From the NCBI GenBank assembly GCA_964430735.1, contig CAYSFB010000001.1, positions 124,082 to 188,081 of the forward strand: a stretch of 64,000 nt of DNA, in the 5' to 3' direction. Origin of the DNA: an uncultured Planctomycetia bacterium. GTDB taxonomy: Bacteria; Omnitrophota; Gorgyraeia; 2-02-FULL-51-18; JAGOUK01. Below the pieces are notes generated by a model, which saw only the letters and a list, made by a program, of their open reading frames with translations, was not told the origin of the DNA and searched no databases. The first letter of the stretch is position 1. The number at the start of each line of letters is the position of its first letter. Below, one piece after another: positions 1-32,239 of this stretch. Position numbers and translations under genes: made by a program.

Positions 1-64
1 TGTGGATCTTATCCCCTTCGTTATATACGGGGATCAGGATCTGAAGCTCGGGGACGGTGGCCAT
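1..64 (-). CDS. GT2 glycosyltransferase (5' partial; only the first 21 codons lie in the window)
   Basis: ATG at 64-62 on the minus strand translates to MATVPELQILIPVYNEGDKIH. The ILIPVYNE motif is the classic GT2 N-terminus. The ORF runs off the window start. Confidence 0.5.
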   Translation of the reverse strand, partial: MATVPELQILIPVYNEGDKIH

Positions 65-90
65 GCTGCGGGCGTTGGATGCGCAGCCGG

Positions 91-1389
91 TTACCGGACG
101 ATGCGCGGTTCGGGCAGCGGGATGATGAACCCGCCCTTATAACCTTTTTCCCGAAGCTTGGGGATGAGCTCATCCGCAATATGCCACGAGAACAGCAGCG
201 CGTAATCAGGCGGATCGCTAAAAAGCTTCGCTTCGTCTTCAACCGGGATCAGCGTGCCCGGCATGTACTTGCCGGTCTTGTAGGAACCCGCGATCTCAAG
301 CACCGAAGCGATGATACCGTCGTCGAGGCCCGTGTAATGCACGAGCGTGCTCGCGCGCGACGGAGCGCCGATCCCGTAGATCCGGCCGCCCTTTTCGATG
401 ACCGGCGACAGGAGCGCCAGAAGCTTGAGCTTCGACTCGATTACGCGGCGCTTAAAGTCCGCCAGCGCACGATCCTTGATTCCCATGGCCGATTCAGCCG
501 CCAAGAGCGTCCGCACCGAATCACGGACCGGGAACGTGCCTTTGCGGGCCGCGTAAACGCGGACTGAGCCGCCGTGCGTCGGAATTTCTTTGGCGTGGAT
601 GATCTCGAGACCCTGAGATTCGAGGAGGTGCTGAAGACTGGTGAGCGAGTAGTAGCGCAAGTGCTCGTGATAGATCGTGTCGTATTGAAGCGTGCGGATG
701 AGCGCCGGCAGATAATGCGATTCGGAAATGAAGATCCCCTTCGGATCCAGCAGACCGACAATGTTTCGCACCACTTCGCCGACATGTTCGATATGGGCGA
801 ATACATTGGTCGCGGTGATGATGCGCGCTTTGCCGTGCTCGCGTTCGCACTGCGCGGCCGATGCCGCGTTAAAAAAGCTCATGATGGACGTGATGCCGCG
901 CTCTTGGGCCAGCTTAGCCATGAGCGTCGGCTCGATCCCGCAAACGCGGTTGCCGGCGTTCTTGAAGTTCGAGAGCAGCGTGCCGTCGTTGGACCCGATG
1001 TCGACGACCAGGTCCTTGGATTCGATGGGATAAAGCGCCGCCACTTCGCGCTGCATTTCGGCGAAGTTTTCGCGCAAGATACGGGTCGTGCCGCTGGTGT
1101 ACGGATACTCCGGCGGGAACAGGATCGCGGGATCGACGACGAGGCCCAACTGGACCAGCGCGCAGGTCTTGCACTGCAACAGTTCCGCCGGATAAGAGAC
1201 TTCTTCCTGCGGACGCGAACCGATCGGGCGCATGTGATTGACGGGCGGCAGGCCGCCCAAAAAAAGGATGGATTCGAGGTTGTTTCCGCCGCAGACCTGA
1301 CAGCGGTCAACGGGAATGCTCGTGCCGGTGCCGGCGGTGCGGCGCATCGTCGTTTCAGAATGCCGGGGATCGAGCGTCGAGGGGGTCAT
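91..1389 (-). CDS. NDP-hexose C-methyltransferase (TylC3-like, class I SAM methyltransferase with N-terminal Zn-ribbon)
   Basis: 432 aa. The N-terminus has a CxxC...CxxC zinc-binding motif (CQVCGG...CKTCAL). A SAM-MTase core follows (VVDIGSNDG) and then a C-methyltransferase C-terminal domain. The start overlaps the upstream stop as ATGA. Confidence 0.8.
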   Translation of the reverse strand: MTPSTLDPRHSETTMRRTAGTGTSIPVDRCQVCGGNNLESILFLGGLPPVNHMRPIGSRPQEEVSYPAELLQCKTCALVQLGLVVDPAILFPPEYPYTSGTTRILRENFAEMQREVAALYPIESKDLVVDIGSNDGTLLSNFKNAGNRVCGIEPTLMAKLAQERGITSIMSFFNAASAAQCEREHGKARIITATNVFAHIEHVGEVVRNIVGLLDPKGIFISESHYLPALIRTLQYDTIYHEHLRYYSLTSLQHLLESQGLEIIHAKEIPTHGGSVRVYAARKGTFPVRDSVRTLLAAESAMGIKDRALADFKRRVIESKLKLLALLSPVIEKGGRIYGIGAPSRASTLVHYTGLDDGIIASVLEIAGSYKTGKYMPGTLIPVEDEAKLFSDPPDYALLFSWHIADELIPKLREKGYKGGFIIPLPEPRIVR

Positions 1390-2357
1390 GCGTTCTCCTT
1401 AGCGTATGTGGCGTACCAGCGGGCCAGGACAGGAAGTCCGGCAGCCAGCGGGATGCGCGGATCAAAACCCAGAGCGGACATTTTACGGATATCCGGACAA
1501 CGGCGCAACGTTCCGCCTTTGGCGCCGGGCTGAGGAAGCAGACGGATTTTACGGCCAAAAAAATCACCCACCAGCCGCGCAGCGTCGGCGATCCTGACCT
1601 CTTCGCGTGTACCGATGTGATAGATTCCCAAGTGCTCGCCTTTATCCAGCAGAATAGCCAGGCCGTCCGCAAAATCACGGATGTCGATGAATGCCCGGGT
1701 CTCTTCGCCTGTCCCCTGGATCGGAAACTCGATCTCGCCCGCGCCGCGCTCTGCGAGCGCCTTCATCCGCAGGACAAATTGCGGGAGCACATGCTCGTTG
1801 CCCATGTCCGGACCGTACACATTGTGCGGACGAAAGATCAGGACGCGCTTCATAAAACGACCCGCCTGATGCAGGGCCATCATCTCGCTGATCATCTTGC
1901 CGGCGCCGTAGGAATACCGCGGGTTGAGCGGATCAGGAATCACAAGCGGAACCGCTTCCGACGTCGGAACTTCCGGAGGGGTCTGATAGACCTCGGAGCT
2001 GGAAGCGAGCACAAGCTCCGGCGTCCCGTGCCGGCGCGCGGCGTCGATCACGTTTACCATCCCCTTCACACCGACTTCGAGAACCAGATCCGGCTTGGTG
2101 TAAAAAAATTCAGTTCCATTCACGAACGCCAAATGCAGAATGCTGTCCACGCCTTTGACGGCAGCCGCCACATCCTCGGTCTGACGCACGTCGCCGCGCA
2201 CGAACTCGACCCGGTCCTGCACGTCTTCCAATCGTCTCGGCCGGCCCCGGGACAGATCGTCGAGCACGCGGACCGAGTGGCCGTCTTTGAGCAGCCGCTT
2301 CACAACGGCCGAGCCGATGAAGCCGGACCCGCCGGTCACCAGATATTTTTTAGCCAC
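1386..2357 (-). CDS. NAD-dependent sugar epimerase/dehydratase (SDR family)
   Basis: 323 aa. Rossmann motif VTGGSGFIGS and a YxxxK catalytic motif (YSYGAGK). Confidence 0.8.
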   Translation of the reverse strand: MAKKYLVTGGSGFIGSAVVKRLLKDGHSVRVLDDLSRGRPRRLEDVQDRVEFVRGDVRQTEDVAAAVKGVDSILHLAFVNGTEFFYTKPDLVLEVGVKGMVNVIDAARRHGTPELVLASSSEVYQTPPEVPTSEAVPLVIPDPLNPRYSYGAGKMISEMMALHQAGRFMKRVLIFRPHNVYGPDMGNEHVLPQFVLRMKALAERGAGEIEFPIQGTGEETRAFIDIRDFADGLAILLDKGEHLGIYHIGTREEVRIADAARLVGDFFGRKIRLLPQPGAKGGTLRRCPDIRKMSALGFDPRIPLAAGLPVLARWYATYAKENA

Positions 2358-3384
2358 AAAGCACCCACTTTTTCATTTTGTCCGCTTGCCGTGCTGCCTC
2401 GATCAAGCGTTGCGCACGGGCGCCTTCGGGGAACCCCGGGCGACACTGACCGCGGCCGCGGATGGCGGCGGCCCAACGGCCCATCACTTCCGCCGCAGGC
2501 GCAATCCGCCCGTCTTCGTTCCGGACTGGTCCTTTCAGGACGATTTTTTCGATCTTGCCGCTGGAAAGATGGCGCGTGAGCGTAAAGGCTGACGCATAAT
2601 CGGACCCGCGGTTCTCAAGTACGATCCGTCCGCCGCTGCCGATTAATGCGACCTGATGAATCGCCTCCCCGGGAGAATGCGTCGTGACGACGGCCGAGGC
2701 AGCGACACCCGTCTTGGATTCCGCCCAGATCGCCGCGCCCGTTTCGCCCTTGATGCGCTTCAAGCCCTGCGCCCGGGTTAACCGGCAGGCGAGTTTGCGA
2801 AGGGACCCGGCCCAGAATTCCATATAGTTGAAGCTGTGCGAAACAAAGTTGTTCAACACGCCGCCGCCTGACTTCGGATCCGTCTTCCACGAATGAATGT
2901 CATGCTTCACGGCGTAGGTCTCGACATTCCAGACGATCTGCAATTCGCGAAGCACGCCGATCCCTCCCTGATCCAAGAGAAGCTTAGCCGCCTTCCATGC
3001 CGCGATTTCCGGAAATTCAAAGTCCACGGCTGTGACAATGCGCCGCTTGGACGCGAGCGCTGCGAGCGCGTCGGCTTCCCGGGCGGATGGGGCGAGCGGT
3101 TTTTCGCAAAAAATGGGCTTGCCGAGCCGGAGCGCCAGCTGCGCAGCAAGCGCCTGTTCGCGTGGTGGAAGCGCCGTCACTACCGCGTCAATCTGCGGTG
3201 ATTCGATGAGCGCCTTCCAACCGGTGAACGCATTCGGGATACTGAGCCGCAGGGCGGCGGCGCGGGCTTTGTCGGAATGAGCGGATGCGATGGCCGCGAT
3301 GCGGACGCCCGGAATGCGGCGCAGCGCCGGAACCAGCACCCGCTCGCCAAAACCCAGACCGGCCAATCCGACGGCGAGCGTCAA
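2350..3384 (-). CDS. Gfo/Idh/MocA family oxidoreductase (WbpB-like sugar 3-dehydrogenase candidate)
   Basis: 344 aa. N-terminal NAD-binding fold (VGLAGLGFGERV) and the EKP motif (FCEKPLA) of the Gfo/Idh/MocA family. It lies directly downstream of a WbpA-like dehydrogenase. Confidence 0.75.
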   Translation of the reverse strand: MTLAVGLAGLGFGERVLVPALRRIPGVRIAAIASAHSDKARAAALRLSIPNAFTGWKALIESPQIDAVVTALPPREQALAAQLALRLGKPIFCEKPLAPSAREADALAALASKRRIVTAVDFEFPEIAAWKAAKLLLDQGGIGVLRELQIVWNVETYAVKHDIHSWKTDPKSGGGVLNNFVSHSFNYMEFWAGSLRKLACRLTRAQGLKRIKGETGAAIWAESKTGVAASAVVTTHSPGEAIHQVALIGSGGRIVLENRGSDYASAFTLTRHLSSGKIEKIVLKGPVRNEDGRIAPAAEVMGRWAAAIRGRGQCRPGFPEGARAQRLIEAARQADKMKKWVLCG

Positions 3385-4625
3385 ATACGGACTCCCCGTC
3401 CAAAGAAGTTCCAGATATCGACGACGGGTTTTTTGGGTCCGGTGTGGAGGTTTTTATAAGCGGCGTGCGGCACGCACAGGATCAGCAGGTCGCTGCGGCG
3501 GATAACTTCCTTGATGGGGAGAAGCTGGCGGTCGGTTGTTACATGCGGATCCGTTGTGAGCACGGCTTTGGCGTGGAACTCGAGGACTTTTTTGAGCTTG
3601 TAGCTCAACGACGCACGCACATCATCGCTATTGGACTTGAAGGCCATGCCAAGCAATCCGACGGTCAGATCCTTGAGCTTGAATTTTTTCTCGATCTGAC
3701 CGACGAGATAAAGAACGAGCCCTTCGTTGATCGTCATCGCAGAATGCCCCAGACTGAATTGGTTGTCCGAAAACGCAGCGAGCTGCATCGTGTCTTTCAG
3801 GAGGCAGGGGCCGGCCGCCAAACCCGCGCCCGGCAGATCGCGCAGGCGCCCGTAATTCTGCTTCATCCCCTTGAGCACGCGGTCGTAATCCACGCCGGCG
3901 GAATTCGCGATCATGAAGAATTGATTGCTCGCCGCGAACTGGATGTACCGGTACGCGTTGGAAAAAAGCTTCGCAAATTCAGCCTCCAGCGGCGCCAGTT
4001 CCACGGTCTCGGGAGCGATGCGGCCGAAGAGCTTCGAAGCCGCCAGCCGGGCCTGAGGCGTCATGCCGCTCACGATCTGCGGAAGCCGCTGGACTTCGTC
4101 GATGGCATGGCCTTGCACGACCCGCTCCGGACAAAAGGCGACCTGCACCTTCTTGCCGTTTTTCTTGAGGTAATGATCCAGCCACTCCGTCGTGCCGGGA
4201 TAGACCGTAGAGCGCAGGACGATGAGCTGACCGTTGCGCAAATACGGCAGAAGCCGGTCGATGCAGATTTTCATAACTTTGGTGTCGGGATTCAAGAACT
4301 CGTCGACCGGTGTCCCGATGGTGATCACGACAACCGAAGCGGATGCGATGAGGGACGGGTCTGAGGTCAGCTCCAAGCGGCCGGACGCAAGCGCAGAGCG
4401 CAGATATTGTTCAGCGCCCTCTTCCATGAACGGAACTTCCCCGCTTCGGATCGTATCGAGGGTTTTTTCGTTGATGTCGTAGACGAGGACGCGCTGACCC
4501 TTGGATGCAAAAACGAGTGCCAGCGGCAGACCGACATGGCCGGCGCCTCCGACAATGCAGATGTCCGTCCGGGTGGACCCGGAAACACGCGGCTTGGGCT
4601 GGGGTTTGGAATGAGAGCGGGTCAT
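3381..4625 (-). CDS. Nucleotide-sugar 6-dehydrogenase (UDP-GlcNAc/UDP-glucose dehydrogenase family, WbpA/TviB-like)
   Basis: 414 aa. N-terminal GxGxxG motif (IVGGAGHVGL) and a conserved catalytic Cys region (GPCLLKD). ATGA overlap with the next gene. Confidence 0.8.
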   Translation of the reverse strand: MTRSHSKPQPKPRVSGSTRTDICIVGGAGHVGLPLALVFASKGQRVLVYDINEKTLDTIRSGEVPFMEEGAEQYLRSALASGRLELTSDPSLIASASVVVITIGTPVDEFLNPDTKVMKICIDRLLPYLRNGQLIVLRSTVYPGTTEWLDHYLKKNGKKVQVAFCPERVVQGHAIDEVQRLPQIVSGMTPQARLAASKLFGRIAPETVELAPLEAEFAKLFSNAYRYIQFAASNQFFMIANSAGVDYDRVLKGMKQNYGRLRDLPGAGLAAGPCLLKDTMQLAAFSDNQFSLGHSAMTINEGLVLYLVGQIEKKFKLKDLTVGLLGMAFKSNSDDVRASLSYKLKKVLEFHAKAVLTTDPHVTTDRQLLPIKEVIRRSDLLILCVPHAAYKNLHTGPKKPVVDIWNFFGRGVRI

Positions 4626-4645
4626 GATTTAAAGGCGGTATTTTA

Positions 4646-5194
4646 TCAGCTCTTGGGGCGATGCACCATGCCAAAACCCGTCAGCGCGAGCGCCGCCACG
4701 TTGAGCGCATGATCGAATCGCCCGGGCCGAATGAGACGGCGTAGCTGATCGGCGTTCGCCAATACGCATTCGATGCCGGCCTCAGGCCCGGCCCCCGGAA
4801 CGGGCCGGCAGTCCAACGCTTCATAAACCCAAAGCCGGTTCATCATGCGGCCGGTGTCCGGAATCAAGACACCGACCTTCCTCAGACTGGAACAGCGGTA
4901 ACCGGTTTCTTCGAAGAGTTCTTTGCGAGCCGTGGCTGCGGGAGAATAGCCTTTATCAACCGTACCGCTGGGCAGCTCCAGCGTCACGCGGTCCGGGGCC
5001 GGGCGGAATTGACGCACCAGAATGTACCGTCCCTGGCTGTCGCGGGCAACGACCGAAACATAGTCCGGTGCTGTCAGCGCATAGTAAGGGTGTTTTTCGC
5101 CTTGAACCTTGCGGGCCTTGAGCTCAAACCAAGGGGTCCGGAACGCGGTCTGCGTCCGGGTGATGCGTTTGCGAATCAAGCCTTCCGCCCCCAA
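4646..5194 (-). CDS. NUDIX hydrolase (nucleotide-sugar/ADP-ribose pyrophosphatase type)
   Basis: 182 aa. Nudix box RKELFEETGY is present. Confidence 0.75.
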   Translation of the reverse strand: MGAEGLIRKRITRTQTAFRTPWFELKARKVQGEKHPYYALTAPDYVSVVARDSQGRYILVRQFRPAPDRVTLELPSGTVDKGYSPAATARKELFEETGYRCSSLRKVGVLIPDTGRMMNRLWVYEALDCRPVPGAGPEAGIECVLANADQLRRLIRPGRFDHALNVAALALTGFGMVHRPKS

Positions 5195-5919
5195 TACAAC
5201 CTCACCAGCGCAAAATACCCCCGTATCGTCCTGAAGTTGTTGTTCTTGCTGGGGGTCGGCTTCTGGTCATAGCGCAGAACAAAAGGCACCTCGGTGATCC
5301 GGGCGCCGAGCATCCGCAGCCGGACCAGGACTTCCGGCGCCGCGACGAAGCCCAAATGAGGCAGCTGGATCACGTTTCCAGCGAACCGTTCGTGCGCCTT
5401 CTTGAGGATGGACGCGCGGTACACGCGGTAATTGCAGCTGTACTCCCGCAGGCCCTTCACCGGAAAAAAAAGCTTCAAAAAAATGCCTGCGCCCATGCTC
5501 ATCAGCGTCTTGAACGCCGAAAGCCCTTCCTGGCCGCCGCCTTCCTGGAACCGGGACAACGCCACGACGTCATACCCCTCTTTGAGCTTCTCGATCGCCG
5601 CCAGCGCGAAGCGCGGTTCATGCGTGTCGTCGCAGTCCATCGACATCACCACGTCGTCGTCGGCCGCTGTCTTCGCCAAATAGGCCAGGCCGTTGATCAT
5701 CGTGCGGCCGAGTCCCGAATTGACCTCGTGGCCGCGCACATCGACTGGATAGCGGTGCGCGAGTTCCTGCGCAATCTGCTTCGTGCGGTCGGAGCTGCCG
5801 TCATCAAACACCAAAACCCGGTAATCCAGGCCGGCGGCTTTAAAAACGGCGTCGATCTTGCCGATCAGGATTGGAAGCGCGATCTCTTCGTTGTAAGCGG
5901 GTAAAAAAACTCGGATCAT
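5176..5919 (-). CDS. GT2 glycosyltransferase, polyprenyl-phosphate sugar synthase-like (DPM1/ArnC type)
   Basis: 247 aa, start taken at [13 protein letters not shown] strong RBS (AAGGAGG) lies upstream of this ATG. A DxD-type motif is present (MDCDDTHE). Confidence 0.8.
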   Translation of the reverse strand: MIRVFLPAYNEEIALPILIGKIDAVFKAAGLDYRVLVFDDGSSDRTKQIAQELAHRYPVDVRGHEVNSGLGRTMINGLAYLAKTAADDDVVMSMDCDDTHEPRFALAAIEKLKEGYDVVALSRFQEGGGQEGLSAFKTLMSMGAGIFLKLFFPVKGLREYSCNYRVYRASILKKAHERFAGNVIQLPHLGFVAAPEVLVRLRMLGARITEVPFVLRYDQKPTPSKNNNFRTIRGYFALVRLYWGRKA

Positions 5920-6461
5920 CGGCGAACCTCCTTGGACCACATAACGGTTTTTTCCTCTATATTACTTTGCGTCCGTCCGGCCTCTGCCAAGAGAACTGCC
6001 ATCCATGTTTCAAGATTGAGCCCGCGCAGACGATCCGCAACCGCAACAAGCACCGCAGCCGGAACCAAGAGGCACAACGGCTGCGATTCAGCTCTTAGCC
6101 CCAACATCCTCCGAACTACTCGGCGTACACGCAAAAGAACGGATCCGGCAAACGACAGACCGCGCGCCAAGCCGCGGTCGTCCGAACCGATGCCGGCCCG
6201 CCAACTCCCGGCCTCCAAAGCTTCCGTCAGCCGCACAAGCTCCTTGGGTGGAACGGAACCCGCCGCGTCCCACAACACGATCCGCGCACCTTCCGTCCGG
6301 ACCGCCCACTCCAAAACGGACTGCGCATCCCAGACCGGACCGGCTTCCGAAGACCAAACCCTCAGATCCTGACCGCAAGTGCTGCGGTAACGTTCGAAAC
6401 GTTCTCTGCAACCGGCGGCCGCTCCGGAGCATTGCGAGTCAAATATGACGACTCCGGTCAT
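5916..6461 (-). CDS. Hypothetical protein (possible GT-A/DUF2064-like transferase partner of the adjacent GT2)
   Basis: 181 aa, starting at [10 protein letters not shown]. Its ATG overlaps the upstream gene's stop as ATGA, and its own stop overlaps the GT2 start. I recognise no clear motif. Confidence 0.45.
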
Positions 6462-7462
6462 CTGCCTCCAGGCGCCCGGAAGTACGCGATGGTTTTTCGT
6501 AAACCTTCTTCCAGTCCGACCTTCGGCCGCCACTGGAGCAACCGATTGGCCAGCGTGATGTCCGGACAGCGCCGCTTGGGGTCGTCGACCGGCAAAGGCT
6601 TATAGACCAGCTTGGAACGGGACCCCGTCAGCCGGATCAAGATCTTGGCGAGATCGACCATGTCGTATTCGGAAGGGTTGCCGAGGTTGACGGGGCCGGT
6701 CGTGTCCGCGCGGTGCAGACGGAAAAATCCCTCGACCAGGTCGTCCACATAGCAAAAACTGCGGGTCTGCGTCCCCTTGCCGTACACCGTGAGCGGCTGG
6801 CCCTTGAGCGCCTGGTCGATGAAGTTCGGGATCACCCGCCCGTCCCGGGCGCGCATCCGCGGACCGTACGTATTAAAGATCCGACCGATCTTGACGTCGA
6901 CCCCGTGCTCACGATGGTAAGCGAGCGTGATCGCCTCGGAAAAACGCTTCGCCTCGTCATAAACGCCGCGCGGACCGATCGGGTTGACGTTGCCCCAATA
7001 CGTTTCCGGCTGAGGATGAACGGCGGGATCGCCGTACACTTCCGAAGTCGACGCCATTACAAACACCGAACGCTTGGCCTTCGCCAGACCCAGCGCGTTG
7101 TGCGTCCCGAGGGATCCGACCTTGAGCGTCTTGATCGGATGTTTGAGGTAATCCGGCGGGCTGGCCGGCGAAGCAAAATGAAAAACCGCCTGAACGTCTC
7201 CGGCGACGCGAAACGGTTTGGAGACGTCATGCTTCATCAGAGAAAAACGGGAATTTTTTGCATAAGGCTTGATATTCGCGGGGTTGCCGGTCAAGAAGTT
7301 GTCGACGCAAACCACGCGCCGGCCTTCGGCCAGGAAGCGCTCGCACAGGTGCGAGCCGATGAAGCCGGCGCCGCCGGTGATTACAACCGTTCGGGCTTGT
7401 TGGCTTCGAACCACTGAAGGGTCTCCTTGAGGCCTTGATCGAGCTTCGTTTTGGGGCGCCAT
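6458..7462 (-). CDS. UDP-glucuronate decarboxylase (UDP-xylose synthase, SDR family)
   Basis: Rossmann motif [13 protein letters not shown], the DNFLTG motif, and TSEVYGDP...YDEAKR. Very similar to UXS/ArnA-decarboxylase type enzymes. The start is uncertain; the ORF overlaps the upstream epimerase gene. Confidence 0.8.
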
Positions 7463-8334: not shown

Positions 8335-8342
8335 GGGGGTCC

Positions 8343-10539: not shown

Positions 10540-11444
10540 GCTTTGGCCCCCGCCAAGTCCACGTAACGGTCCAATGCATCCTCCCAAGGCCTCAAAACAA
10601 TGCCCAGCTCCGAGGCGATGCGCTCAGTGGTCAGCACCGTATGCTTCGGGCGGACGGCAATCCAGCCCGGAAGATCGCGCCCCGAAAGGCGTGGCAGATC
10701 AGCCGACCGCTTGAGTCGGCGGGCGATCCGTGCCGCCATGCCGTACCGTGTCGTGCCGCCTTTGTTCGCGCAATGAAAAATTCGGTTGGCACGGCGCCCG
10801 GAAGCCCGGGCCTGCAGCAAGAACTTACCGACCACTGCCCACAATGCATCCGCCAGGTCCGTCGCGTAGCAAGGCGACGCCGTCTGACCGTCCACGGCGC
10901 CAGGCGTCTCGCCGCGGCGCAACTTCTCCAGAATCCCGTTTACGAAGTCCATCCGGGTCCCGCCGAAGATCCAGGTCGAGCGAATGACGGCCGAATATTC
11001 CGGCAGCGTGAGCGCGTAGTGCTCGCCTTCGAGCTTGGTAATCCCATAGATCGAGCAAGGCCCGGTCGCATCCTCTTCGGAGTATGCGCCGCCTTTGGTT
11101 CCGTCAAAAACATAGTCCGTGCTCACATGCAGCAGCGCGGCGCCTGACAAGCGGCAGGCTTCAGCCAAACGCCTGACCCCCAGCGCGTTCACCTGCCGGG
11201 CGGCCTCCGGCTGCGCCTCACACACGTCGACGCCCGCCTCCGCCGCGCAATTGATCACGGCCGCGAACGGCCCGTTGCGTTTAAAAAAATCTTTGACGCT
11301 GTCATCCGAAGCGATGTCCAGACGAAGTGTGTCAGCGGCTTTGCGGGAAGCGGTGACCGTCTCGTAGCCGGACGCCGGGGAAGCGGAGCGCACCGCCGAG
11401 CCGAGCATGCCGGCGCCGACGATCAAGATCCGGTCGAGAGCCAT
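10536..11444 (-). CDS. rmlD: dTDP-4-dehydrorhamnose reductase
   Basis: 302 aa, start at MALDRILIVGAGMLGS. The core resembles RmlD (HVSTDYVFDG...YGITKLEGE). It lies immediately downstream of rmlB. Confidence 0.8.
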   Translation of the reverse strand: MALDRILIVGAGMLGSAVRSASPASGYETVTASRKAADTLRLDIASDDSVKDFFKRNGPFAAVINCAAEAGVDVCEAQPEAARQVNALGVRRLAEACRLSGAALLHVSTDYVFDGTKGGAYSEEDATGPCSIYGITKLEGEHYALTLPEYSAVIRSTWIFGGTRMDFVNGILEKLRRGETPGAVDGQTASPCYATDLADALWAVVGKFLLQARASGRRANRIFHCANKGGTTRYGMAARIARRLKRSADLPRLSGRDLPGWIAVRPKHTVLTTERIASELGIVLRPWEDALDRYVDLAGAKA

Positions 11445-11445
11445 C

Positions 11446-12486
11446 TCAGGCCCGCGTCCCGGCCGCGGCGCGCGTTTCCTCGAGCTGGCGGAGATAATTC
11501 TGATAGTCGGCGCTCTTGCGCCGGATGCCGTCCAACCAATCCAGATGGCTTCGGTACCAGGCGGCCGTTTCGGAAAAAGCGCTGTCAAACGAACGGCCCG
11601 GCTTCCATCCGAGCGAACGGATCTTGGAGTCGTCCATCGCGTACCGGCGGTCGTGCCCGAGGCGGTCGGCGACGCGCTGGATCAGTTCCCCCTCGCGGCC
11701 CTCCAGACCCAGCTCCTTCAGAATCCGGCGCGTGAGCGCCAGATTGGTCAGATGAAACCCGCCGCTCACGTTATAAACTTCCCCCGCCGCACCCTTGCGC
11801 CAGGCGAAGTGCACCGCGTCGCAGTGATCGTCCACATGCAGCCAGTCGCGCTCCTGGGAACCGTCGCCGTACAGCGGAAGCGGCTTGCCGGCCAGCGCGT
11901 TCAGAATAAAAAGCGGAATGACTTTTTCGGGATACTGCCAGGGACCGTAGGTATTGGATCCGCGCGTGACGACCACCGGCAGGCCGGTGTGGCGGAACGC
12001 GTTGAGTGCCAGATATTCGGCCGCGGCTTTCGAGACGGAATAAGGATTGGTCGGGTTCAGGGGATCGGTCTCGCGGAACGCCCCCTCGGCGCGGGAGCCG
12101 TACACTTCGTCCGTCGAGACATGGACGAACTTTTTGACGCCGGCAGCCTTGGCCTCCGTCAACAGCGACTGGGTTCCGGCCGCGTTGGACTCAAAAAAAT
12201 CCCGGCAATCGAGCAGGCTGCGGTCCACATGACTCTCCGCCGCAAAATGAAACACTGCGTCTGCACCGGCCATTTTTCCGGCAAAAAGATCGCGGCGGGC
12301 GATATCGATCTGCTCGAAGCGATAACGGGAACCGTATTGCTCGGCCAAACCACCCAGACGCGTGAGGTCCCCCGAATAACTCAACTTGTCCCAGACGATG
12401 ACCGACGCTGCCGGCTCGCGCTCCAGCAGCAGCCTGACGAACCTCGAGCCGATGAAGCCCGCTCCGCCCGTAACGATCAGCTTCAT
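11446..12486 (-). CDS. rmlB: dTDP-glucose 4,6-dehydratase
   Basis: 346 aa. N-terminus [14 protein letters not shown], then HVSTDEVYG and YSVSKAAAE. ATGA overlap with rmlA. Confidence 0.88.
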   Translation of the reverse strand: MKLIVTGGAGFIGSRFVRLLLEREPAASVIVWDKLSYSGDLTRLGGLAEQYGSRYRFEQIDIARRDLFAGKMAGADAVFHFAAESHVDRSLLDCRDFFESNAAGTQSLLTEAKAAGVKKFVHVSTDEVYGSRAEGAFRETDPLNPTNPYSVSKAAAEYLALNAFRHTGLPVVVTRGSNTYGPWQYPEKVIPLFILNALAGKPLPLYGDGSQERDWLHVDDHCDAVHFAWRKGAAGEVYNVSGGFHLTNLALTRRILKELGLEGREGELIQRVADRLGHDRRYAMDDSKIRSLGWKPGRSFDSAFSETAAWYRSHLDWLDGIRRKSADYQNYLRQLEETRAAAGTRA

Positions 12487-13208
12487 TTCCGTGTTCTCGC
12501 CTTCTGGATCAACTGCGAAGCCGAAAACAGCGACTCAAACGTTCCGCAATCGGTCCACCAGCCGTCGACCACGCCGTAGCGCAGGCTTTTTTGGGCGATG
12601 TAGGCGTTGTTCACGTCCGTGATCTCGAGCTCGCCGCGGCGCGAAGGCTTGAGATTCCGGATGAAGTCAAAGACGCGCGCGTCATAAAAATAAAGACCCG
12701 TCACCGCGAGCGTGGATTCGGGTTTAACGGGCTTCTCGACGATCTTCTGAATGCGGCCGGATTTGACGGTCGCGACGCCGAAGCGTTGCGGGTTGCGGAC
12801 GGACTTGAGTCCGAGAAGCGCGCCGTGCGGATTGCGGCGGAAGTCGTCCGCGAACGGCCGGACCGACTTTTCGAACAGATTGTCCCCCAGCATCACCGCG
12901 ATCGGATCCTTCTGAGTGATGTGCTCGACCAGCGACAGGGCCTGAGCGATCCCGCCCTCGCCTTCCTGGTACACATAGTGCAACGTCTTGAGACCCATCT
13001 TGTGGCCGTTGCCCAAAAGCTGCATGAATTCGCCCGAATGGTTGCCGCCCGTCACCAGCACCACGTCCCGGATCCCGGCCTCAACCATCGCCTCGATCGG
13101 ATAAAAAATCATCGGCCGGTCATACACGGGCAGCAAGTGTTTGTTGGTGATCCGGGTCAGCGGATGGAGCCGGGTCCCGAGGCCTCCGGCCAAAATAACG
13201 CCCTTCAT
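12483..13208 (-). CDS. rmlA: Glucose-1-phosphate thymidylyltransferase (short-form sugar nucleotidyltransferase)
   Basis: 241 aa. N-terminal motif KGVILAGGLGTRLHPLT characteristic of NDP-sugar pyrophosphorylases. Confidence 0.8.
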   Translation of the reverse strand: MKGVILAGGLGTRLHPLTRITNKHLLPVYDRPMIFYPIEAMVEAGIRDVVLVTGGNHSGEFMQLLGNGHKMGLKTLHYVYQEGEGGIAQALSLVEHITQKDPIAVMLGDNLFEKSVRPFADDFRRNPHGALLGLKSVRNPQRFGVATVKSGRIQKIVEKPVKPESTLAVTGLYFYDARVFDFIRNLKPSRRGELEITDVNNAYIAQKSLRYGVVDGWWTDCGTFESLFSASQLIQKARTRK

Positions 13209-13214
13209 CGGCTC

Positions 13215-14507
13215 TTATCTCCCCATCGATTCGTAGGCAAATCCCAGCGCCTTCATGGACGCGGGTTCGTACAAATTGCGGCCGTCGATCACCAGCGGAT
13301 GGCGCATGGATTTTTGGACGCGCTTCAGGTCTGCGGTCCGGAATTCCGCCCATTCCGTCACGACGAGGAGACAGTCGGCTCCGCGGCAGGCGTCGTATGC
13401 GTTTTTGGCATACCGGATCGCGGGCAGGACTTCGCGCGCCTTGCTCATCGCCTGCGGATCGTAGGCTGCCACGACCGCTCCGCGATCTTTCAGGAATTTG
13501 ACGATCTCGAGGCTGGGCGCGAACCGCATGTCGTCGGTGTCCGGCTTGAAGGCCAGGCCCCAGACGGCGATCTTTTTTCCTCGGACGTTCCAGAGGCGGT
13601 CTTCAACTTTTTTCAAAAAGTGCTTCACCTGGGACTCGTTGACTTCCTGAACGGCCTTCAGCAGGCGGAAGTCGTAGCCGAGCTTTTCGGAAATATTTAC
13701 GAACGCTGCCAGGTCCTTCGGGAAGCAGAAGCCGCCGAAGCCGATGCCGGCGTTGAGGAATTTTTTTCCGATGCGGCTGTCGAGACCCATGCCGTGGGCG
13801 ACCATCTGGACGTCCGCGCCGGTCAGCTCGCAGATGCGAGAAACGGCGTTGATGAACGAAATCTTCATGGCCAGAAACGAATTGGACGCATGCTTGATGA
13901 TCTCGGCGCTGTTCAGATCGGTGATGACCAGCGGGGCCTTGATGCCCTTGTAAAGCGCGGTGACCGCTTTTTCGGCTTTGGCGCTGTCCACGCCGAGGAT
14001 GATGCGGTCGGGATTCATGAAGTCGTGGATCGCCGTCCCCTCGCGGAGGAATTCAGGGTTGGACGCGACGTCGAACTGGGCGCCCTTGGGGGCGTAGCGG
14101 CGCAGTGTCTCGCGGATTTTGGTTCCGGTGCTGACCGGGACGGTGCTTTTTTCGATGACCAGCTTATGGCGGGGTCCGAGCGAAAGGGCTACCTGACGCG
14201 CGACCTGCTCGATGGCCGACAAGTCGGCTCCGCCGTCCGGAAGCGGCGGGGTTCCGACCGCGATAAAAACCGCGTCCGAAGCCGCGGAAGCCTTGGTGAC
14301 ATCAGGTGAGAACGAGAGACGGCCTTCGCGAACATTGGTCCGGATCATTTCCTCGAGACCGGGTTCGTAAAAGTGGGGCTTCCCCTTCTTCAGCACGGCC
14401 AGCTTGCGGCGGTCGCTGTCGACATTGATCACCCGGTGCCCCAGATTGGCGAAGCACGCGGCGGTGACAAGACCGACATAGCCGGCGCCGATCACCGCGA
14501 TATTCAC
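13215..14507 (-). CDS. ugd: UDP-glucose 6-dehydrogenase
   Basis: 430 aa. N-terminus MNIAVIGAGYVGLV and catalytic region GFGGFCFPKD. ATGA overlap with the lptD stop. Confidence 0.85.
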   Translation of the reverse strand: MNIAVIGAGYVGLVTAACFANLGHRVINVDSDRRKLAVLKKGKPHFYEPGLEEMIRTNVREGRLSFSPDVTKASAASDAVFIAVGTPPLPDGGADLSAIEQVARQVALSLGPRHKLVIEKSTVPVSTGTKIRETLRRYAPKGAQFDVASNPEFLREGTAIHDFMNPDRIILGVDSAKAEKAVTALYKGIKAPLVITDLNSAEIIKHASNSFLAMKISFINAVSRICELTGADVQMVAHGMGLDSRIGKKFLNAGIGFGGFCFPKDLAAFVNISEKLGYDFRLLKAVQEVNESQVKHFLKKVEDRLWNVRGKKIAVWGLAFKPDTDDMRFAPSLEIVKFLKDRGAVVAAYDPQAMSKAREVLPAIRYAKNAYDACRGADCLLVVTEWAEFRTADLKRVQKSMRHPLVIDGRNLYEPASMKALGFAYESMGR

Positions 14508-16738
14508 GAGGCGGACTCCGCCGGAATTTGACCGGCCATGTTCCGCACCTCGCGGTAATGCTGCATGCGTCGGAAGGAATTCTCGGGGAATGCGCTCGGC
14601 GTGAACGTCACGTAGAAGCCGTTCTCGTCGTGGCTGCGGTTATAGATCAAGCGCACCGTCCAGCAATAGAAGTTGTCGCGTTCGACCACAAATTCAAACT
14701 CGTTGTTCCGCCCGCCGTCCGACGCCGAGTCACGCGCGAAGTCGAACCGCTCGTACACGCCGAACTTCCACTCCGGATTCATCCGCCACTCGGCATGCGC
14801 GGTGGTCTGATTGCTCGTGTCGTACAGGAAGCGCTGGCCGATGCCGAGCTTGAGAGGACCGCGCTCGTGCGTCAGGTCGATGTTGGCTTCTTCGAAGCGG
14901 TCGAACTCGGCGCTGTAGCGGGTGTCGACCGTCGTGCTCAGCCAGGTCCAGGGCGAAAAGGTCGTTTCGGTGAGAATCTGGTGCAGCTTGTTCGTATCCA
15001 TCTGGGGCATCACGAACTCGAAGCTGACGATGGACCGCACGAATTCGCGCATCAGCATGTCCGATTCCGGGTTCGAAGGATCCCTCCGGTGCTTGATCTG
15101 CAGCTTGTTCTCGAAGTCGACCGTCATCATGCTCTCGTGGTCCAGCGTATCCAGCCGGTCAAATTGAAACAACTTGTCTTTTTCGTACGTCGGGCGGGAC
15201 TGGTAGAAGTAACTGACGGTCGGCGTGAGGATGTGCCGCATCTGGTCGATGTCGATGCCCCACTGATGGAACGACGCGTCGTAGACCTTGAAGAGCTTGG
15301 TGCTCGCGTCCACGCCGGCTTCCGCGTTGTTCCGGAGGAAGGTGCGCTCATCGCCGTCCATGTTCCGGGTGTAGTACGTGTTGCGCATGCCGACGAAGGG
15401 CGTGATCGCCACGTCGCCCGCCTTGAGCGCATAGCTCAGACGGTTGCGCACGTCGCCGCGGCCGGCATCCTCGTTCTGCTCTTCGGAGTCCAGATCCTTG
15501 AAGGTGCGGTTGAGCCACGTAAACTGGTCTTCGTTCCGGAAATAAAAGTTCGAGTCCCCGATCGCGCGTGTGTGCGTGTCGAAGTGGAATTCCGGCAGCC
15601 GTTCGACGACGGGGATGAAGTCGTCGACCCGGTAGCGGCTCAAAAGGCTCGCGGAGTAGTCGTCGGTCGCGCGCACGATCGACACGTAGTTGTCCGGAAA
15701 CGCGATGCGCTCGAACTCTTCGCGATAAAAATAATCCTGGATCATGTACTCGTCGCTCAGCTTGTTGAGCTCGAAGGTCAGCGAGGTGGCTTCGTCGATG
15801 CGGGCCCGGTGACGGTCCTGGATCCGGTAACGGCTGGCGGTCGGGACCGCGTGATCCTTGGCGCGCGAGCAGTCGTCGCCCGACTCGAAGCAGTCGTCGT
15901 CCGCAAAATAGGTGCGCAGCGCGCCGCGGCCGAAGGTCTCCGAACGGTAGAAGTGTTCGACGCCCCACGCGAATCCCTGGTTTTCGCGCACGTCGAGCAG
16001 CACGTTGCCGTCGTGGTCCTTGTTGGCGTAATACCGGACCTTGGTCAGCGCGAACGCGCCCCATTCGCTCGTCGTGCCGAGTTCGACCTGGATCGGGAAG
16101 CGGTCGAAGTTCTTGATCGGGAGGACGAGCACCGGGATGTAAAACAGCGGGACGTTGCGCAGGCGCAGAATCACGTGCTTCATGACGAGACGGTCGTTCG
16201 GATAGTACTCGATCTCGCGGGATTCCAGGCGGTACTGGGGCGATCCGTCGACGCAATCCGTCGATTCGTCGCAGGTCGTGATGTAGGCGTCGCGGAGCAG
16301 GTAGGCCTCCTTGTCGCCGGCGGTGCGTTCGAGGCTGGCCGCGCGGCCGCGGTAACTCGGCGCGAGAACCGCCTTCAAATCCTTGATCTCGGCCGTCTTT
16401 TGACCGAAGTCGACGTGGATGTCTTCACCGGAATACTTCGCGCCCGGCTGCGTGAGGATCACATTCCCCTTGGCCCAGGCTTCCTTGGTCTTCATGTCGA
16501 CCTCAACTGAATCCGCCGTGAGGACCCAGCCCTCGTAGTCGATCTTGATGTTGCCTTCGCCGCGGGCGCGGTTCTTTTCATAAAAATACTCGACCGCGTC
16601 GCCCTGGATCTTCAGGGGCTTCTCAACCTTGGCCGTTTCGGGCGCAGGGGCGTCGGCGGCCCGGGCGGCGCCGTTTCCGGATACGAGCAGCAGGAGCGCG
16701 AGACAGGCGGCGCTCAATCGTTTCAAAACGGTCTTCAT
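14504..16738 (-). CDS. lptD: LPS-assembly outer-membrane protein LptD (OstA family)
   Basis: 744 aa, start taken at MKTVLKRL followed by a signal peptide. N-terminal OstA-like domain and a long C-terminal beta-barrel. The upstream 247 codons in the ORF track are a GC-rich read-through without a credible start. Confidence 0.8.
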   Translation of the reverse strand: MKTVLKRLSAACLALLLLVSGNGAARAADAPAPETAKVEKPLKIQGDAVEYFYEKNRARGEGNIKIDYEGWVLTADSVEVDMKTKEAWAKGNVILTQPGAKYSGEDIHVDFGQKTAEIKDLKAVLAPSYRGRAASLERTAGDKEAYLLRDAYITTCDESTDCVDGSPQYRLESREIEYYPNDRLVMKHVILRLRNVPLFYIPVLVLPIKNFDRFPIQVELGTTSEWGAFALTKVRYYANKDHDGNVLLDVRENQGFAWGVEHFYRSETFGRGALRTYFADDDCFESGDDCSRAKDHAVPTASRYRIQDRHRARIDEATSLTFELNKLSDEYMIQDYFYREEFERIAFPDNYVSIVRATDDYSASLLSRYRVDDFIPVVERLPEFHFDTHTRAIGDSNFYFRNEDQFTWLNRTFKDLDSEEQNEDAGRGDVRNRLSYALKAGDVAITPFVGMRNTYYTRNMDGDERTFLRNNAEAGVDASTKLFKVYDASFHQWGIDIDQMRHILTPTVSYFYQSRPTYEKDKLFQFDRLDTLDHESMMTVDFENKLQIKHRRDPSNPESDMLMREFVRSIVSFEFVMPQMDTNKLHQILTETTFSPWTWLSTTVDTRYSAEFDRFEEANIDLTHERGPLKLGIGQRFLYDTSNQTTAHAEWRMNPEWKFGVYERFDFARDSASDGGRNNEFEFVVERDNFYCWTVRLIYNRSHDENGFYVTFTPSAFPENSFRRMQHYREVRNMAGQIPAESAS

Positions 16739-17673
16739 TCTTTTTCCTCCGAACGGGCGAAGGCCAAAGCCGCCGCCCCGATGATGCCTGCGTCCGCGCC
16801 GAAAGCGGCCGGAACAATCTTGAGATGCTGCGTCGCCAGCGGAAACGCGTGGCGCTTCACCGAACGGCGCAGCGGGTCGAACAAAAATTTGCCGGCGCCG
16901 GCCACGCCGCCGCCGATCACGATCATTTCGGGGTTGAGAAGATTGCAGATCCCGCCCAAGAAATCCCCGAACTCTTCGGCGACGTCGGCCCAGAACCGCT
17001 TCGCCTTCGCGTCGCCCGCGCGCGCCGCCCGCGTCACGTCTTCCAGCCGGACGGCCCGGCCCATCACCCGCGCGGCCTTGGCGCACAACGCCCGATTTCC
17101 GACGCGCGTTTCGATGCAGCCCCGGCTGCCGCAGCCGCACTTGAGTCCCGTCCGCACGTCGCCGTAGCGGATGTGCGAGATTTCGCCCGCCGAAAACGTC
17201 GATCCGTAAAAAAGCTTTCCATCCCGGACGATCCCGCAGCCGATGCCGGTGCCGAGCGTAAGAAAAAGCGCGTAGCTGCTCCCGCGGGCCGCGCCGAACC
17301 GGAACTCGGCCATCGTCATCGCGTTGCCGTCGTTGTCGATCACGGCCTTGAGACCGGAGCGCCGGCTCAGCAGTTCGGCCAGCGGAATATTGTTCCATGC
17401 GGGCAGGTTGGGCAGCACCAGCACGCGCTTGCGGGCCTGATCGACCGGGCCGGGCATGCCGGCGCCGATCCCGGCGCAATCCGCGCGGCGGACACCGTTC
17501 TGCTTCAGCAGCGCGGCGGATTCTTCGGCGACCCAGCGGACAAATGCGTCAGGCGAACCGACCTCACGGGCTTCGCGCCGGACCGTCGCCAAAATCCGCG
17601 CGTTCCGGTCCACGAGCGCCAAGCGCGCGTTCGTGCCTCCGAGGTCCAATCCGATCGCCCATTTGGGCTTCAT
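16735..17673 (-). CDS. ROK family sugar kinase (glucokinase/N-acetylglucosamine kinase-like)
   Basis: 312 aa, start at MKPKWAIGLDLGGTNARL. ROK Zn motif CGCGSRGC. Its stop overlaps the lptD start as ATGA. Confidence 0.78.
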   Translation of the reverse strand: MKPKWAIGLDLGGTNARLALVDRNARILATVRREAREVGSPDAFVRWVAEESAALLKQNGVRRADCAGIGAGMPGPVDQARKRVLVLPNLPAWNNIPLAELLSRRSGLKAVIDNDGNAMTMAEFRFGAARGSSYALFLTLGTGIGCGIVRDGKLFYGSTFSAGEISHIRYGDVRTGLKCGCGSRGCIETRVGNRALCAKAARVMGRAVRLEDVTRAARAGDAKAKRFWADVAEEFGDFLGGICNLLNPEMIVIGGGVAGAGKFLFDPLRRSVKRHAFPLATQHLKIVPAAFGADAGIIGAAALAFARSEEKE

Positions 17674-17770
17674 AAATATCTTAAATTTCCCCTGTCCTGG
17701 ATGAGCGGTCAAGCCGGTTTTGGAAAGGGGTTATTATACAAGCTTTGGCCGAAGCGGTCTGCTGAAAAAG

Positions 17771-19129: not shown

Positions 19130-19131
19130 GG

Positions 19132-27372: not shown

Positions 27373-27392
27373 GTTTCGCTATTGCTCCTTGG

Positions 27393-28215: not shown

Positions 28216-28228
28216 CTCTCGGTCCCCT

Positions 28229-29354: not shown

Positions 29355-29387
29355 CGGTCTTCCTCTCCTGTTCGGTGATGCCGGTCG

Positions 29388-32172: not shown

Positions 32173-32239
32173 GCGTCTCCCACTGGCAATAAAGCTAAGA
32201 AGTTAATCGTCGAAAGACGGAGTATTATAAGGCCCCTTT

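Follow-up and report, generated by a model that had tools for sequence, protein, structure and literature searches.

A conserved ROK-lptD-ugd gene arrangement in Omnitrophota, within a candidate envelope-glycan operon

Introduction

In E. coli the gene of the lipopolysaccharide (LPS) translocon, lptD, belongs to an operon with the order lptD-surA-pdxA-rsmA-apaGH. Why is the same gene found within a string of sugar-nucleotide genes in an uncultured bacterium of the Omnitrophota, and is this a peculiarity of one genome? The question concerns a 17.6-kb gene cluster (positions 91-17673, minus strand) in a 64,000-nucleotide stretch of contig CAYSFB010000001.1, i.e. the whole stretch of DNA that was analysed, hereafter called the window. 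Omnitrophota are uncultured, often ultra-small bacteria and, to our knowledge, their envelopes have not been characterised chemically. An original prediction, based on the DNA letters and a list of open reading frames (ORFs), suggested that LPS export and the synthesis of an unusual glycan are co-expressed from this cluster.

The analysis described below gives a two-part answer. The arrangement ROK kinase-lptD-ugd is the normal one in this Omnitrophota clade and not a peculiarity of the genome. We also consider it moderately probable that the cluster is the proximal 17.6 kb of an envelope-glycan operon of at least 27 genes, in which glycosyltransferases of the GT2 and GT-C types would carry out a decoration with polyprenyl-phosphate-linked sugars and LptD would insert the product.

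Results

The translocon gene and its two partners

The three genes at the centre of the question are the following:

16735..17673, minus strand: ROK-family sugar kinase with the CxCGxxGC zinc motif and without a helix-turn-helix domain (Pfam ROK, E 4.7e-61)
14504..16738, minus strand: LptD, the outer-membrane LPS translocon, 744 amino acids, with a Sec signal peptide (profile, fold and Pfam evidence)
13215..14507, minus strand: UDP-glucose 6-dehydrogenase (Ugd/TuaD-like) with all three UDPG_MGDP_dh domains

The window lptD encodes a genuine LptD, as the original label had it. The signal peptide ends in AARA and is followed by AD. A family profile built with 26 homologues was compared with the solved LptD structures in the PDB and matched them with E 1.7e-23; the alignment pairs positions 34-320 with the N-terminal domains and the beginning of the barrel. 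The Pfam domains LptD_N and LptD_2 are both marginally above their cut-offs (LptD_N 22.3 bits, cut-off 20.4), and the protein has the N-terminal OstA/LptA-like beta-jellyroll domain. The AlphaFold2 model (predicted local distance difference test score, pLDDT, 80) is all-beta over residues 43-714. Using Foldseek, full-length matches to the model were found only among LptD and LptDE structures (4q35, template modelling (TM) score 0.72/0.70, E 3e-32), whereas the next fold class, the TonB-dependent receptors, reached TM scores of 0.25 or less. The model and the Foldseek matches also place a beta-barrel with the LptD fold at the C terminus. Two cysteines, C156, where the N-terminal domain ends, and C692, close to the C terminus, are invariant in the 26 homologues; their positions are consistent with an inter-domain disulfide of the E. 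coli C173-C725 type.

The ROK kinase scored 199 bits against the NCBIfam ROK glucokinase subfamily, which is under the cut-off of 260. Ugd, on the other side of lptD, scored 464 bits as an NDP-sugar (nucleoside diphosphate sugar) dehydrogenase (cut-off 190) and 516 bits as TuaD.

Other envelope genes were seen further away. LptF (52943-54040) and LptG (54037-55125) are encoded on the plus strand, about 35 kb from lptD and opposite to it (Pfam LptF_LptG, E 7e-88 and 3e-83); among the ORFs examined beside them no lptB, lptC or lptA was seen. A MlaD/ABC ATPase/MlaE set, i.e. MlaFED of outer-membrane lipid asymmetry, lies at 26494-29026 on the minus strand, next to STAS and anti-sigma-kinase-like genes (29028-29828) and a CHASE2-SpoIIE phosphatase gene (24503-26473). 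Because LptF, LptG and MlaFED are present in the window, we regard the organism as a diderm with an Lpt pathway. No LptE-like gene was found next to the window lptD. In two more distantly related loci, L028 and L044, the gene that follows lptD in place of ugd is a 183-amino-acid lipoprotein-like ORF (12145-12696) and a 215-amino-acid unannotated gene (10291-10938), respectively, and either may be an LptE.

Conservation of the arrangement in Omnitrophota

Homologues of the window LptD come almost only from metagenome-assembled genomes (MAGs) of Omnitrophota (Omnitrophica). Their gene contexts were collected in two ways, by exact protein look-up and by scanning the species representatives of GTDB, and were annotated by BLAST against the window proteins. 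The scan was carried out with an alignment of 8 LptD sequences, the 26-sequence alignment being too divergent.

Of the GTDB species loci, 25 continue for 0.5 kb or more beyond lptD, and in all of them but L028, i.e. in 24, the next gene downstream encodes Ugd. The same holds for L002-L006, L043 and L045-L048. In most relatives the gene immediately before lptD is that of a ROK kinase; some have a transaldolase gene at this place, either on its own or separating ROK from lptD. The longer string dnaK-dnaJ-DUF1015-accD-ABC-GGDEF-GGDEF-ROK-LptD-Ugd-RmlA-RmlB-RmlD-SDR-DH-epimerase-UXS-GT2 (SDR, short-chain dehydrogenase/reductase; DH, dehydrogenase; UXS, UDP-xylose synthase) is conserved over the range of 85% to about 30% LptD identity. 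Even at 23% identity an LptD homologue was found with a Ugd-family gene next downstream, and more distant LptDs at 21-26% identity, including one deltaproteobacterial protein, are not followed by such a gene. The genes past the first GT2, from the NUDIX hydrolase to the C-methyltransferase, vary among the relatives, and variation of this kind after a conserved part is usual for glycan loci.

Since ROK-lptD-ugd is standard in the clade, this genome did not acquire its arrangement by an insertion of lptD into a sugar operon. The expectation that lptD normally sits with surA and pdxA is an enterobacterial rule, which does not extend to these Omnitrophota. We found nothing relevant in the literature searched on Omnitrophota with respect to LptD, LPS or rhamnose, and the arrangement is unmentioned there.

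The upstream part of the string also deserves a remark. Two diguanylate cyclase genes (GAF-GGDEF and GGDEF, 17771-20559, minus strand) directly precede ROK-lptD in essentially all relatives (L002-L006, L011, L013 and others), which makes cyclic di-GMP signalling genes conserved operon neighbours; an EAL phosphodiesterase gene lies at 22726-24447. Moreover, in Omnitrophota only a few genes separate accD from lptD further downstream, and a deltaproteobacterial locus (L007/L008) likewise has accD ahead of lptD (accD-folC-lptD), which hints at an older accD-lptD neighbourhood.

Packing of the genes

The ORF listing and the inspection of the junctions confirmed 17 consecutive minus-strand genes between 91 and 17673, and an 18th, a GT2 gene, begins at position 64, which is 26 nt past the stop codon of the methyltransferase gene. 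The order of the genes proposed earlier also held at the level of Pfam and NCBIfam families. Contig L040, identical to the window in the overlap, reaches 9.9 kb past position 1.

If each gene is given its most plausible start codon, the largest overlap between neighbours in the cluster is 35 nt and the widest gap 20 nt. The original prediction counted seven ATGA overlaps. All seven are indeed 4-nt start/stop overlaps, but only five of them read ATGA (1386, 6458, 10536, 12483 and 16735), the others being TTGA (3381-3384) and GTGA (14504-14507). If the ATG start of the public gene call for L040 is used for the first small GT2 gene, there is an eighth overlap, again ATGA, at 5916-5919. Both sides of lptD are 4-nt overlaps, i.e. 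with the ROK kinase gene upstream and with ugd downstream, and the ugd-rmlA junction is 6 nt.

It is apparent that the cluster is packed more tightly than its surroundings. All 16 junctions are 20 nt or shorter, as compared to 15 of 29 elsewhere in the same-strand gene string (Fisher p = 5e-4), and junctions that allow a 4-nt overlap make up 9 of 16 versus 4 of 29 (p = 0.004). The co-directional string as a whole runs up to position 50.5 kb or so, and its median gap is about 20 nt. The window has a GC content of about 60%, and the GC content at third codon positions (GC3) of real genes is about 0.75-0.85.

Rfam and tRNA scans revealed no RNA elements inside the cluster. Elsewhere in the window there is a tRNA cluster (Gly, Leu, Lys) at 62605-62876, and a tRNA-Ser(CGA) at 41285-41372. 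The latter lies in the largest intergenic gap of the window (about 1.1 kb), between a tetratricopeptide repeat (TPR) gene ending at 41247 and a gene for an 808-amino-acid autotransporter (42335-44761, minus strand; beta-domain E 1e-62).

A candidate promoter upstream of the ROK gene

17733..17738, minus strand: candidate -10 box TATAAT with a TG before it, 60 nt ahead of the ROK start, between the GGDEF gene and ROK (97-nt gap)

Only 4.4% of the gene string is intergenic, and the minus strand of the window contains three TATAAT hexamers, two of which are intergenic. TATAAT or TATACT is found in the gap upstream of ROK in 11 of the 12 loci examined, although the flanking sequence has diverged; the loci include L001, which is the organism's own contig copy, and L004 and L005, which share one protein. 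This recurrence suggests that the hexamer is a conserved -10 element marking the start of the operon. Between lptD and its neighbours there is neither a comparable gap nor such a box, and the internal gaps of the cluster contain no TATAAT. The proposed co-expression of LPS export and glycan synthesis is therefore plausible in view of the overlaps flanking lptD, the synteny down to 30% LptD identity and the recurring TATAAT, but it is still an inference.

The other intergenic TATAAT (32224-32229, minus strand) lies 183 nt upstream of a LysM-YkuD L,D-transpeptidase gene and may mark a promoter of its own. The third (9868-9873, minus strand) is inside the Rmd-like SDR gene described below, 226 nt upstream of the next gene start. 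It coincides with the Tyr-Asn codons of a YNIC stretch and is therefore probably coding-driven rather than an internal promoter.

Sugar-nucleotide enzymes

Downstream of ugd the cluster encodes the following enzymes of sugar-nucleotide metabolism:

12483..13208, minus strand: RmlA-like sugar-1-phosphate nucleotidylyltransferase of the short form, 241 amino acids (Pfam NTP_transferase, E 1e-55)
11446..12486, minus strand: dTDP-glucose 4,6-dehydratase, RmlB (TIGR01181, 350 bits, cut-off 365)
10536..11444, minus strand: RmlD-family 4-ketoreductase (RmlD_sub_bind, E 7e-67)
9613..10539, minus strand: Rmd-like NDP-4-keto-6-deoxyhexose reductase, SDR7 (best PDB match 2pk3, E 3.8e-78)
8343..9647, minus strand: UDP-N-acetylhexosamine (UDP-HexNAc) 6-dehydrogenase, WecC/Cap5O/TviB-like, dehydrogenase 2 (NCBIfam NDP-sugar dehydrogenase, 424 bits)
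7381..8334, minus strand: 4-epimerase of UDP-HexNAc or its uronic acid (HexNAcA), WbpP/WbgU/TviC-like (PDB 1sb8 WbpP and 3ru9 WbgU, about E 1e-62 to 1e-64)
6458..7414, minus strand: UXS, i.e. UDP-glucuronate decarboxylase (human UXS1, 2b69 and 4gll, E 1.3e-107)
4646..5194, minus strand: NUDIX hydrolase, NudE/ADP-sugar pyrophosphatase-like (Pfam NUDIX, E 1.4e-12)
3381..4625, minus strand: third NDP-sugar 6-dehydrogenase (TIGR03026, 264 bits, cut-off 190)
2350..3384, minus strand: Gfo/Idh/MocA oxidoreductase, sugar 3-oxidoreductase-like (Pfam GFO_IDH_MocA and C-terminal domains)
1386..2357, minus strand: extended SDR, nearest to UXS-type decarboxylases/epimerases (PDB 8rdg, E 6e-37; UXS1, E 8e-33)
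91..1389, minus strand: NDP-hexose 3-C-methyltransferase of the TylC3/MtmC/TcaB9/KijD1 family (zinc-binding Methyltransf_13, Methyltransf_23 and Methyltransf_14)

The homology searches left the sugar-enzyme labels of the original prediction standing, so that no reassignment to unrelated functions was necessary. Good support was obtained for the labels of UXS, of the Rmd-like reductase and of the sugar 3-C-methyltransferase. The UXS match to human UXS1 spans residues 7-314, i.e. it is full-length, and the next match outside the UXS group is at 1e-40. The best structural match of SDR7, 2pk3, is a GDP-6-deoxy-D-lyxo-4-hexulose reductase (Rmd), and the catalytic YxxxK is conserved. In the methyltransferase the complete three-domain architecture is present, with all three Pfam domains above their cut-offs, and MtmC, TcaB9 and KijD1 were matched over the full length in the PDB (E 1e-62 to 1e-67). 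Methyltransferases of the TylC3 type are known from antibiotic deoxysugars and from the virenose pathway of Coxiella.

The three Rml enzymes are all just or well below the NCBIfam equivalog cut-offs (RmlA 228 of 360 bits, RmlB 350 of 365, RmlD 212 of 224); the model for RmlD was TIGR01214, and the protein also matched the RmlD structure 1vl0 in the PDB (E 9e-34). Dehydrogenase 2 matched UDP-ManNAc (UDP-N-acetylmannosamine) dehydrogenase, Cap5O and an N-acetylgalactosamine uronic acid (GalNAcA) dehydrogenase with E 1e-55 to 1e-59, and TviC was the top NCBIfam match of the 4-epimerase. The NUDIX hydrolase scored 42.6 bits as NudE, which is under the cut-off.

The earlier labels WbpA-like and WbpB-like for the third dehydrogenase and the Gfo protein turned out to be a guess at the family level. 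The dehydrogenase matched UDP-ManNAc dehydrogenase and Cap5O structures at about E 1e-43 and reached the generic NDP-sugar dehydrogenase subfamily only; the Gfo protein gave weak and mixed matches (archaeal UDP-GlcNAc (UDP-N-acetylglucosamine) 3-dehydrogenase 26 bits, KijD10 sugar 3-ketoreductase 48 bits). No aminotransferase or acetyltransferase gene adjoins the pair.

A sugar aminotransferase of the DegT/DnrJ/EryC1 family is encoded at 33198-34316 on the minus strand, between a MiaB-like radical SAM gene, with which it has a 4-nt overlap, and MiaA. It was tried as ArnB, WecE or PseC and rejected, as no NCBIfam equivalog cut-off was reached (ArnB 182 versus 631 bits). In the related locus L046 two DegT-type aminotransferase genes flank UXS inside the operon, whereas the window copy is far from the sugar operon. 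Genes for S-adenosylhomocysteine hydrolase and S-adenosylmethionine synthetase adjoin each other within 55517-58085 on the minus strand.

The missing rmlC

The original prediction stated that rmlC is absent beside rmlABD. This was confirmed for the cluster, and the comparison with relatives sharpens it. Using tblastn with the RmlC of L006, no rmlC was detected in the 64-kb window or in the 9.9-kb extension of L040 (about 74 kb in total), nor is there one in any cluster locus of the clade to which the window belongs (LptD identity at least 36%; about 15 loci). On the other hand, the deeper-branching loci L006, L030, L031, L033, L035 and L045-48 have an rmlC gene, encoding a short cupin of 148-149 amino acids, between ugd and rmlA.

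What does the dTDP branch produce without it? One answer is that rmlC moved elsewhere in the genome and that dTDP-L-rhamnose continues to be produced. RmlD has its catalytic motifs, STDYVF and YGxTK, in all relatives, including every rmlC-less locus, which is simplest to understand if the normal substrate is still available, and short rmlC genes are common in Omnitrophota. The other answer is that RmlD and the Rmd-like reductase act on 4-keto sugars that are not epimerised or are C-methylated, derived from RmlB and the TylC3-type methyltransferase, in which case the product would be a D-series or C-methylated 6-deoxyhexose. The failure to find rmlC in the loci named above argues for this, as does the presence of an Rmd-like 4-reductase and a 3-C-methyltransferase, both able to use the RmlB product directly. 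We hold the two answers to be about equally probable.

Three further ideas were tried and given up. A replacement of RmlC by SDR7 was suggested by the fact that the two were mutually exclusive in the first 35 or so loci, but it was ruled out by L045 and L046, which carry both (Ugd-RmlC-RmlA-RmlB-RmlD-SDR7, the SDR7 orthologue being 51% identical); the distribution of rmlC and SDR7 reflects one clade split rather than many independent events. There was no support for RmlD being a bifunctional epimerase/reductase of the plant type (NRS/ER), as only bacterial RmlD and MAT2B structures were matched. Finally, the one named candidate for a relocated rmlC in the rmlC-less clade came from a different MAG, one with rmlC inside the cluster.

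Small glycosyltransferases, a degenerate relative and the operon beyond the window

5916..6461, minus strand: degenerate GT2-like protein, gene 11, called hypothetical in the original prediction (hhalign to the small GT2 family)
5176..5919, minus strand: small soluble GT2 (GT2a), candidate polyprenyl-phosphate sugar synthase, ArnC/DPM1/PpgS-like (Pfam Glycos_transf_2, E 2e-19)
1..64, minus strand: start of a second small GT2 of 244 amino acids, which runs past the window edge

No transmembrane segments were predicted in GT2a. The best NCBIfam matches of all three small GT2s, the third being encoded in the extension, are polyprenyl-phosphate glycosyltransferases (ArnC, PpgS, dolichyl-phosphate hexose transferase, AglJ, PgfS), so at the family level a polyprenyl-phosphate role is suggested for them.

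Gene 11 has no match in Pfam or NCBIfam, its codon-position GC is atypical (GC3 0.62), and the public gene call for the identical contig L040 does not list it. Nevertheless, it is not a non-coding 0.5-kb gap or a pseudogene. Nine full-length homologues with shared motifs (E down to 6.5e-20) were found using HMMER among 1.84e9 representative proteins, and the gene 11 family is remotely related to the small GT2 family (hhalign probability 97%, E 8e-11, 164 columns). The protein has lost the strand at the N terminus as well as two aspartates, that of DDGS and the second one of DxD, and is probably a non-catalytic, truncated GT2 relative.

The L040 extension continues on the same strand with genes for a GT2 (244 amino acids), an SGNH protein, a PMT_2 protein, a protein with seven transmembrane segments, WecB, an SGNH/AlgX protein, an SDR, a GT2 (247 amino acids) and another PMT_2 protein. 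The first SGNH protein is an esterase or acyltransferase. The first PMT_2 protein is a GT-C with at least nine transmembrane segments, the seven-segment protein has a weak GT87 match, and WecB is above its cut-off with 308 bits. The GT-C enzymes match both Pfam PMT_2 and PMT, i.e. the protein O-mannosyltransferases. A search of the rest of the genome for rmlC, wzx/wzy/wzz and waaL had been proposed; it was run over the window and the extension only, and none was seen there. Nor was an initiating phosphoglycosyl transferase or a GT4/GT1 chain builder seen in these two stretches, and over the 27 kb of the operon and its extension no gene carries a Pfam annotation as Wzx, Wzy, WaaL or initiating transferase.

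Discussion

A working model of the operon

The reading that we favour can be put as a series of steps. Transcription would probably start at the recurring -10 box about 60 nt upstream of the ROK gene and might give a single transcript. In the cytoplasm, Ugd and UXS would provide UDP-glucuronic acid and UDP-xylose, dehydrogenase 2 together with the WbpP/TviC-like epimerase would provide a UDP-HexNAc uronic acid and its 4-epimer, and RmlA, RmlB, RmlD and the Rmd-like reductase would provide one or more dTDP-6-deoxyhexoses. The TylC3-type methyltransferase would probably give rise to a 3-C-methylated 6-deoxyhexose. Single sugars would then be loaded onto polyprenyl phosphate by the small GT2s and flipped across the inner membrane, where GT-C enzymes (PMT_2/ArnT-like and GT87-like) would pass them to an acceptor facing the periplasm, most plausibly the lipid A and core of LPS. 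LptD would insert the decorated LPS into the outer membrane. The SGNH/AlgX-type genes beyond the window edge would add acyl-modifying enzymes to this set.

Decoration with single sugars is favoured because small GT2 and GT-C genes occur beside Ugd, a decarboxylase and 4-epimerases, which is the logic of ArnC/ArnT, RgtE/RgtA-D and PpgS/Rv3779. In these systems the sugar goes from the nucleotide sugar to polyprenyl phosphate, is flipped, and is transferred by a GT-C enzyme to a periplasmic acceptor. ArnC/ArnT attach 4-amino-4-deoxy-L-arabinose (L-Ara4N) to lipid A, and RgtE/RgtA-D attach galacturonic acid (GalA) to rhizobial lipid A and core.

Several points weigh against this reading. Packing alone is weak evidence for a shared function of lptD and the sugar genes, because the whole window is compact and 4-nt overlaps elsewhere in it join unrelated genes (MiaB/DegT, DUF420/HAD, TPR/DnaK). 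The promoter was called from one hexamer and its recurrence in relatives, and a generic scan of positions 1-19900 for sigma-70 promoters and terminators gave one promoter-like site where four were expected, with no enrichment of terminator-like sites. The matches of the GT2s to ArnC and PpgS are at 35-52 bits, as compared to cut-offs of 370-529. The dTDP branch cannot be read as rhamnose, because rmlC is absent, and GT-C enzymes of the PMT type also glycosylate proteins.

Alternative explanations

The compactness of the genome suggests an explanation that needs no functional coupling: an ancestral gene order was frozen, and the sugars serve glycans unrelated to export by LptD. About 50 kb of the window are indeed one co-directional string in which unrelated genes share overlaps too, the conserved block also holds dnaK, dnaJ, accD and the GGDEF genes, and a deltaproteobacterial lptD is likewise near accD. 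However, genes are packed significantly more densely in the cluster than in the rest of the string, ugd still adjoins lptD at 23-30% LptD identity although the genes further downstream vary, and the -10 box recurs before ROK while no comparable gap splits lptD from ugd. We therefore find this explanation rather unlikely, if still the strongest competitor. A little less probable in our view is the O-antigen-like alternative of the original prediction, in which the cluster makes precursors for a classical O-antigen, capsule or exopolysaccharide assembled on undecaprenyl pyrophosphate, with Wzx/Wzy or ABC export encoded elsewhere. Ugd, the Rml enzymes, WecB and dehydrogenase/epimerase pairs for UDP-HexNAcA (of the TviB/TviC and WbpO/WbpP types) are what O-antigen and capsule loci typically contain. 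Against it stands the composition of the 74 kb, in which none of the Wzx, Wzy, Wzz, WaaL, initiation and GT4/GT1 functions listed above was seen and only small GT2s with GT-C enzymes are present.

The third alternative is protein O-glycosylation, in which the GT2/PMT_2 pairs would act on secreted or surface proteins and LptD would be a mere neighbour. PMT uses polyprenyl-phosphate-mannose for protein O-glycosylation in Actinobacteria, the GT-C enzymes of the extension match PMT as well as PMT_2, and the large autotransporter and the TPR proteins of the window are possible substrates. But PMT_2 also covers lipid A transferases of the ArnT type, and it is with lptD and ugd that the linkage is conserved, which recalls systems for the modification of lipid A; we regard this alternative as improbable, more so than the other two.

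Significance

The envelope-glycan reading leads to a broader and much more speculative proposal. Clade-wide, lptD would be co-transcribed and translationally coupled with enzymes that make and attach sugars, from one recurring -10 promoter, so that LPS export and the decoration of lipid A and core are linked stoichiometrically, and the rmlC-less subclade might make an rmlC-independent, possibly 3-C-methylated 6-deoxyhexose undescribed in LPS. As a whole we think this proposal is improbable.

Five features are new here. Throughout the clade lptD is embedded between a ROK kinase gene and ugd, and a -10 box recurs upstream of ROK; the locus relies on GT2/GT-C modules; rmlC has been lost from the cluster; there is a degenerate GT2-like family; and a C-methyltransferase occurs in an LPS-type context. 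Every component family is already known, as is the envelope glycan operon as a kind, and no new machinery or mechanism is involved. The locus shows that the gene context of lptD is lineage-specific and not universal, and the conserved ROK-lptD-ugd string with its -10 box can be used as an annotation marker for Omnitrophota genomes. The locus also offers a testable view of the envelope chemistry of these bacteria, with uronic acids, xylose, 6-deoxyhexoses, a possible C-methyl sugar and decoration with single sugars via polyprenyl phosphate.

Comparison with known systems

The nearest systems are Ugd with ArnABCDEFT of E. coli and Salmonella, and RgtE with RgtA-D and LpsL of Rhizobium. They share with the present locus Ugd, an SDR of the decarboxylase family, a 4-epimerase, GT2 and a GT-C of the ArnT/PMT_2 type. 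As in these systems, the genes are on one strand and there is no machinery for oligosaccharides on undecaprenyl pyrophosphate at the locus. Unlike the Arn system, it lacks ArnD and the formyltransferase domain of ArnA, its aminotransferase gene lies outside the cluster, a true UXS orthologue and several GT2/GT-C modules are present, and lptD is within the operon. In other words, the locus is not an Arn system proper: formyltransferase and deformylase are both missing, and the scores are far below the cut-offs (GT2a 50 versus 529 bits for ArnC; DegT versus ArnB as given above). The mycobacterial PpgS (Rv3631)/Rv3779 and GT87 systems likewise pair a small GT2 without transmembrane segments with a polytopic GT-C; here the matches to them are all under the cut-offs, and the host, a diderm that has an Lpt pathway, does not have a mycobacterial envelope.

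The genes of the RmlA, RmlB and RmlD families are contiguous and translationally coupled as in rmlABCD (rfbABCD), and the deeper-branching Omnitrophota have rmlC-rmlA-rmlB-rmlD at the same place. The window differs by the absence of rmlC, by the Rmd-like reductase after rmlD, by the short RmlA and by scores under the equivalog cut-offs for all three enzymes. With the branched-sugar pathways of TylC3, MtmC, TcaB9 and KijD1 it has in common the full three-domain methyltransferase and the co-occurring RmlA and RmlB, i.e. the 4-keto-6-deoxy substrate class. The antibiotic deoxysugar pathways typically have a 2,3-dehydratase or a 3-aminotransferase, neither of which is found here, and the context is that of an envelope glycan and not of secondary metabolism.

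Finally, neither surA nor pdxA was seen in the window. The E. coli lptD operon encodes the same translocon, with an N-terminal beta-jellyroll and a large beta-barrel, but its neighbours are wholly different: in the Omnitrophota locus the ROK kinase gene lies upstream and ugd downstream, and both overlap lptD.

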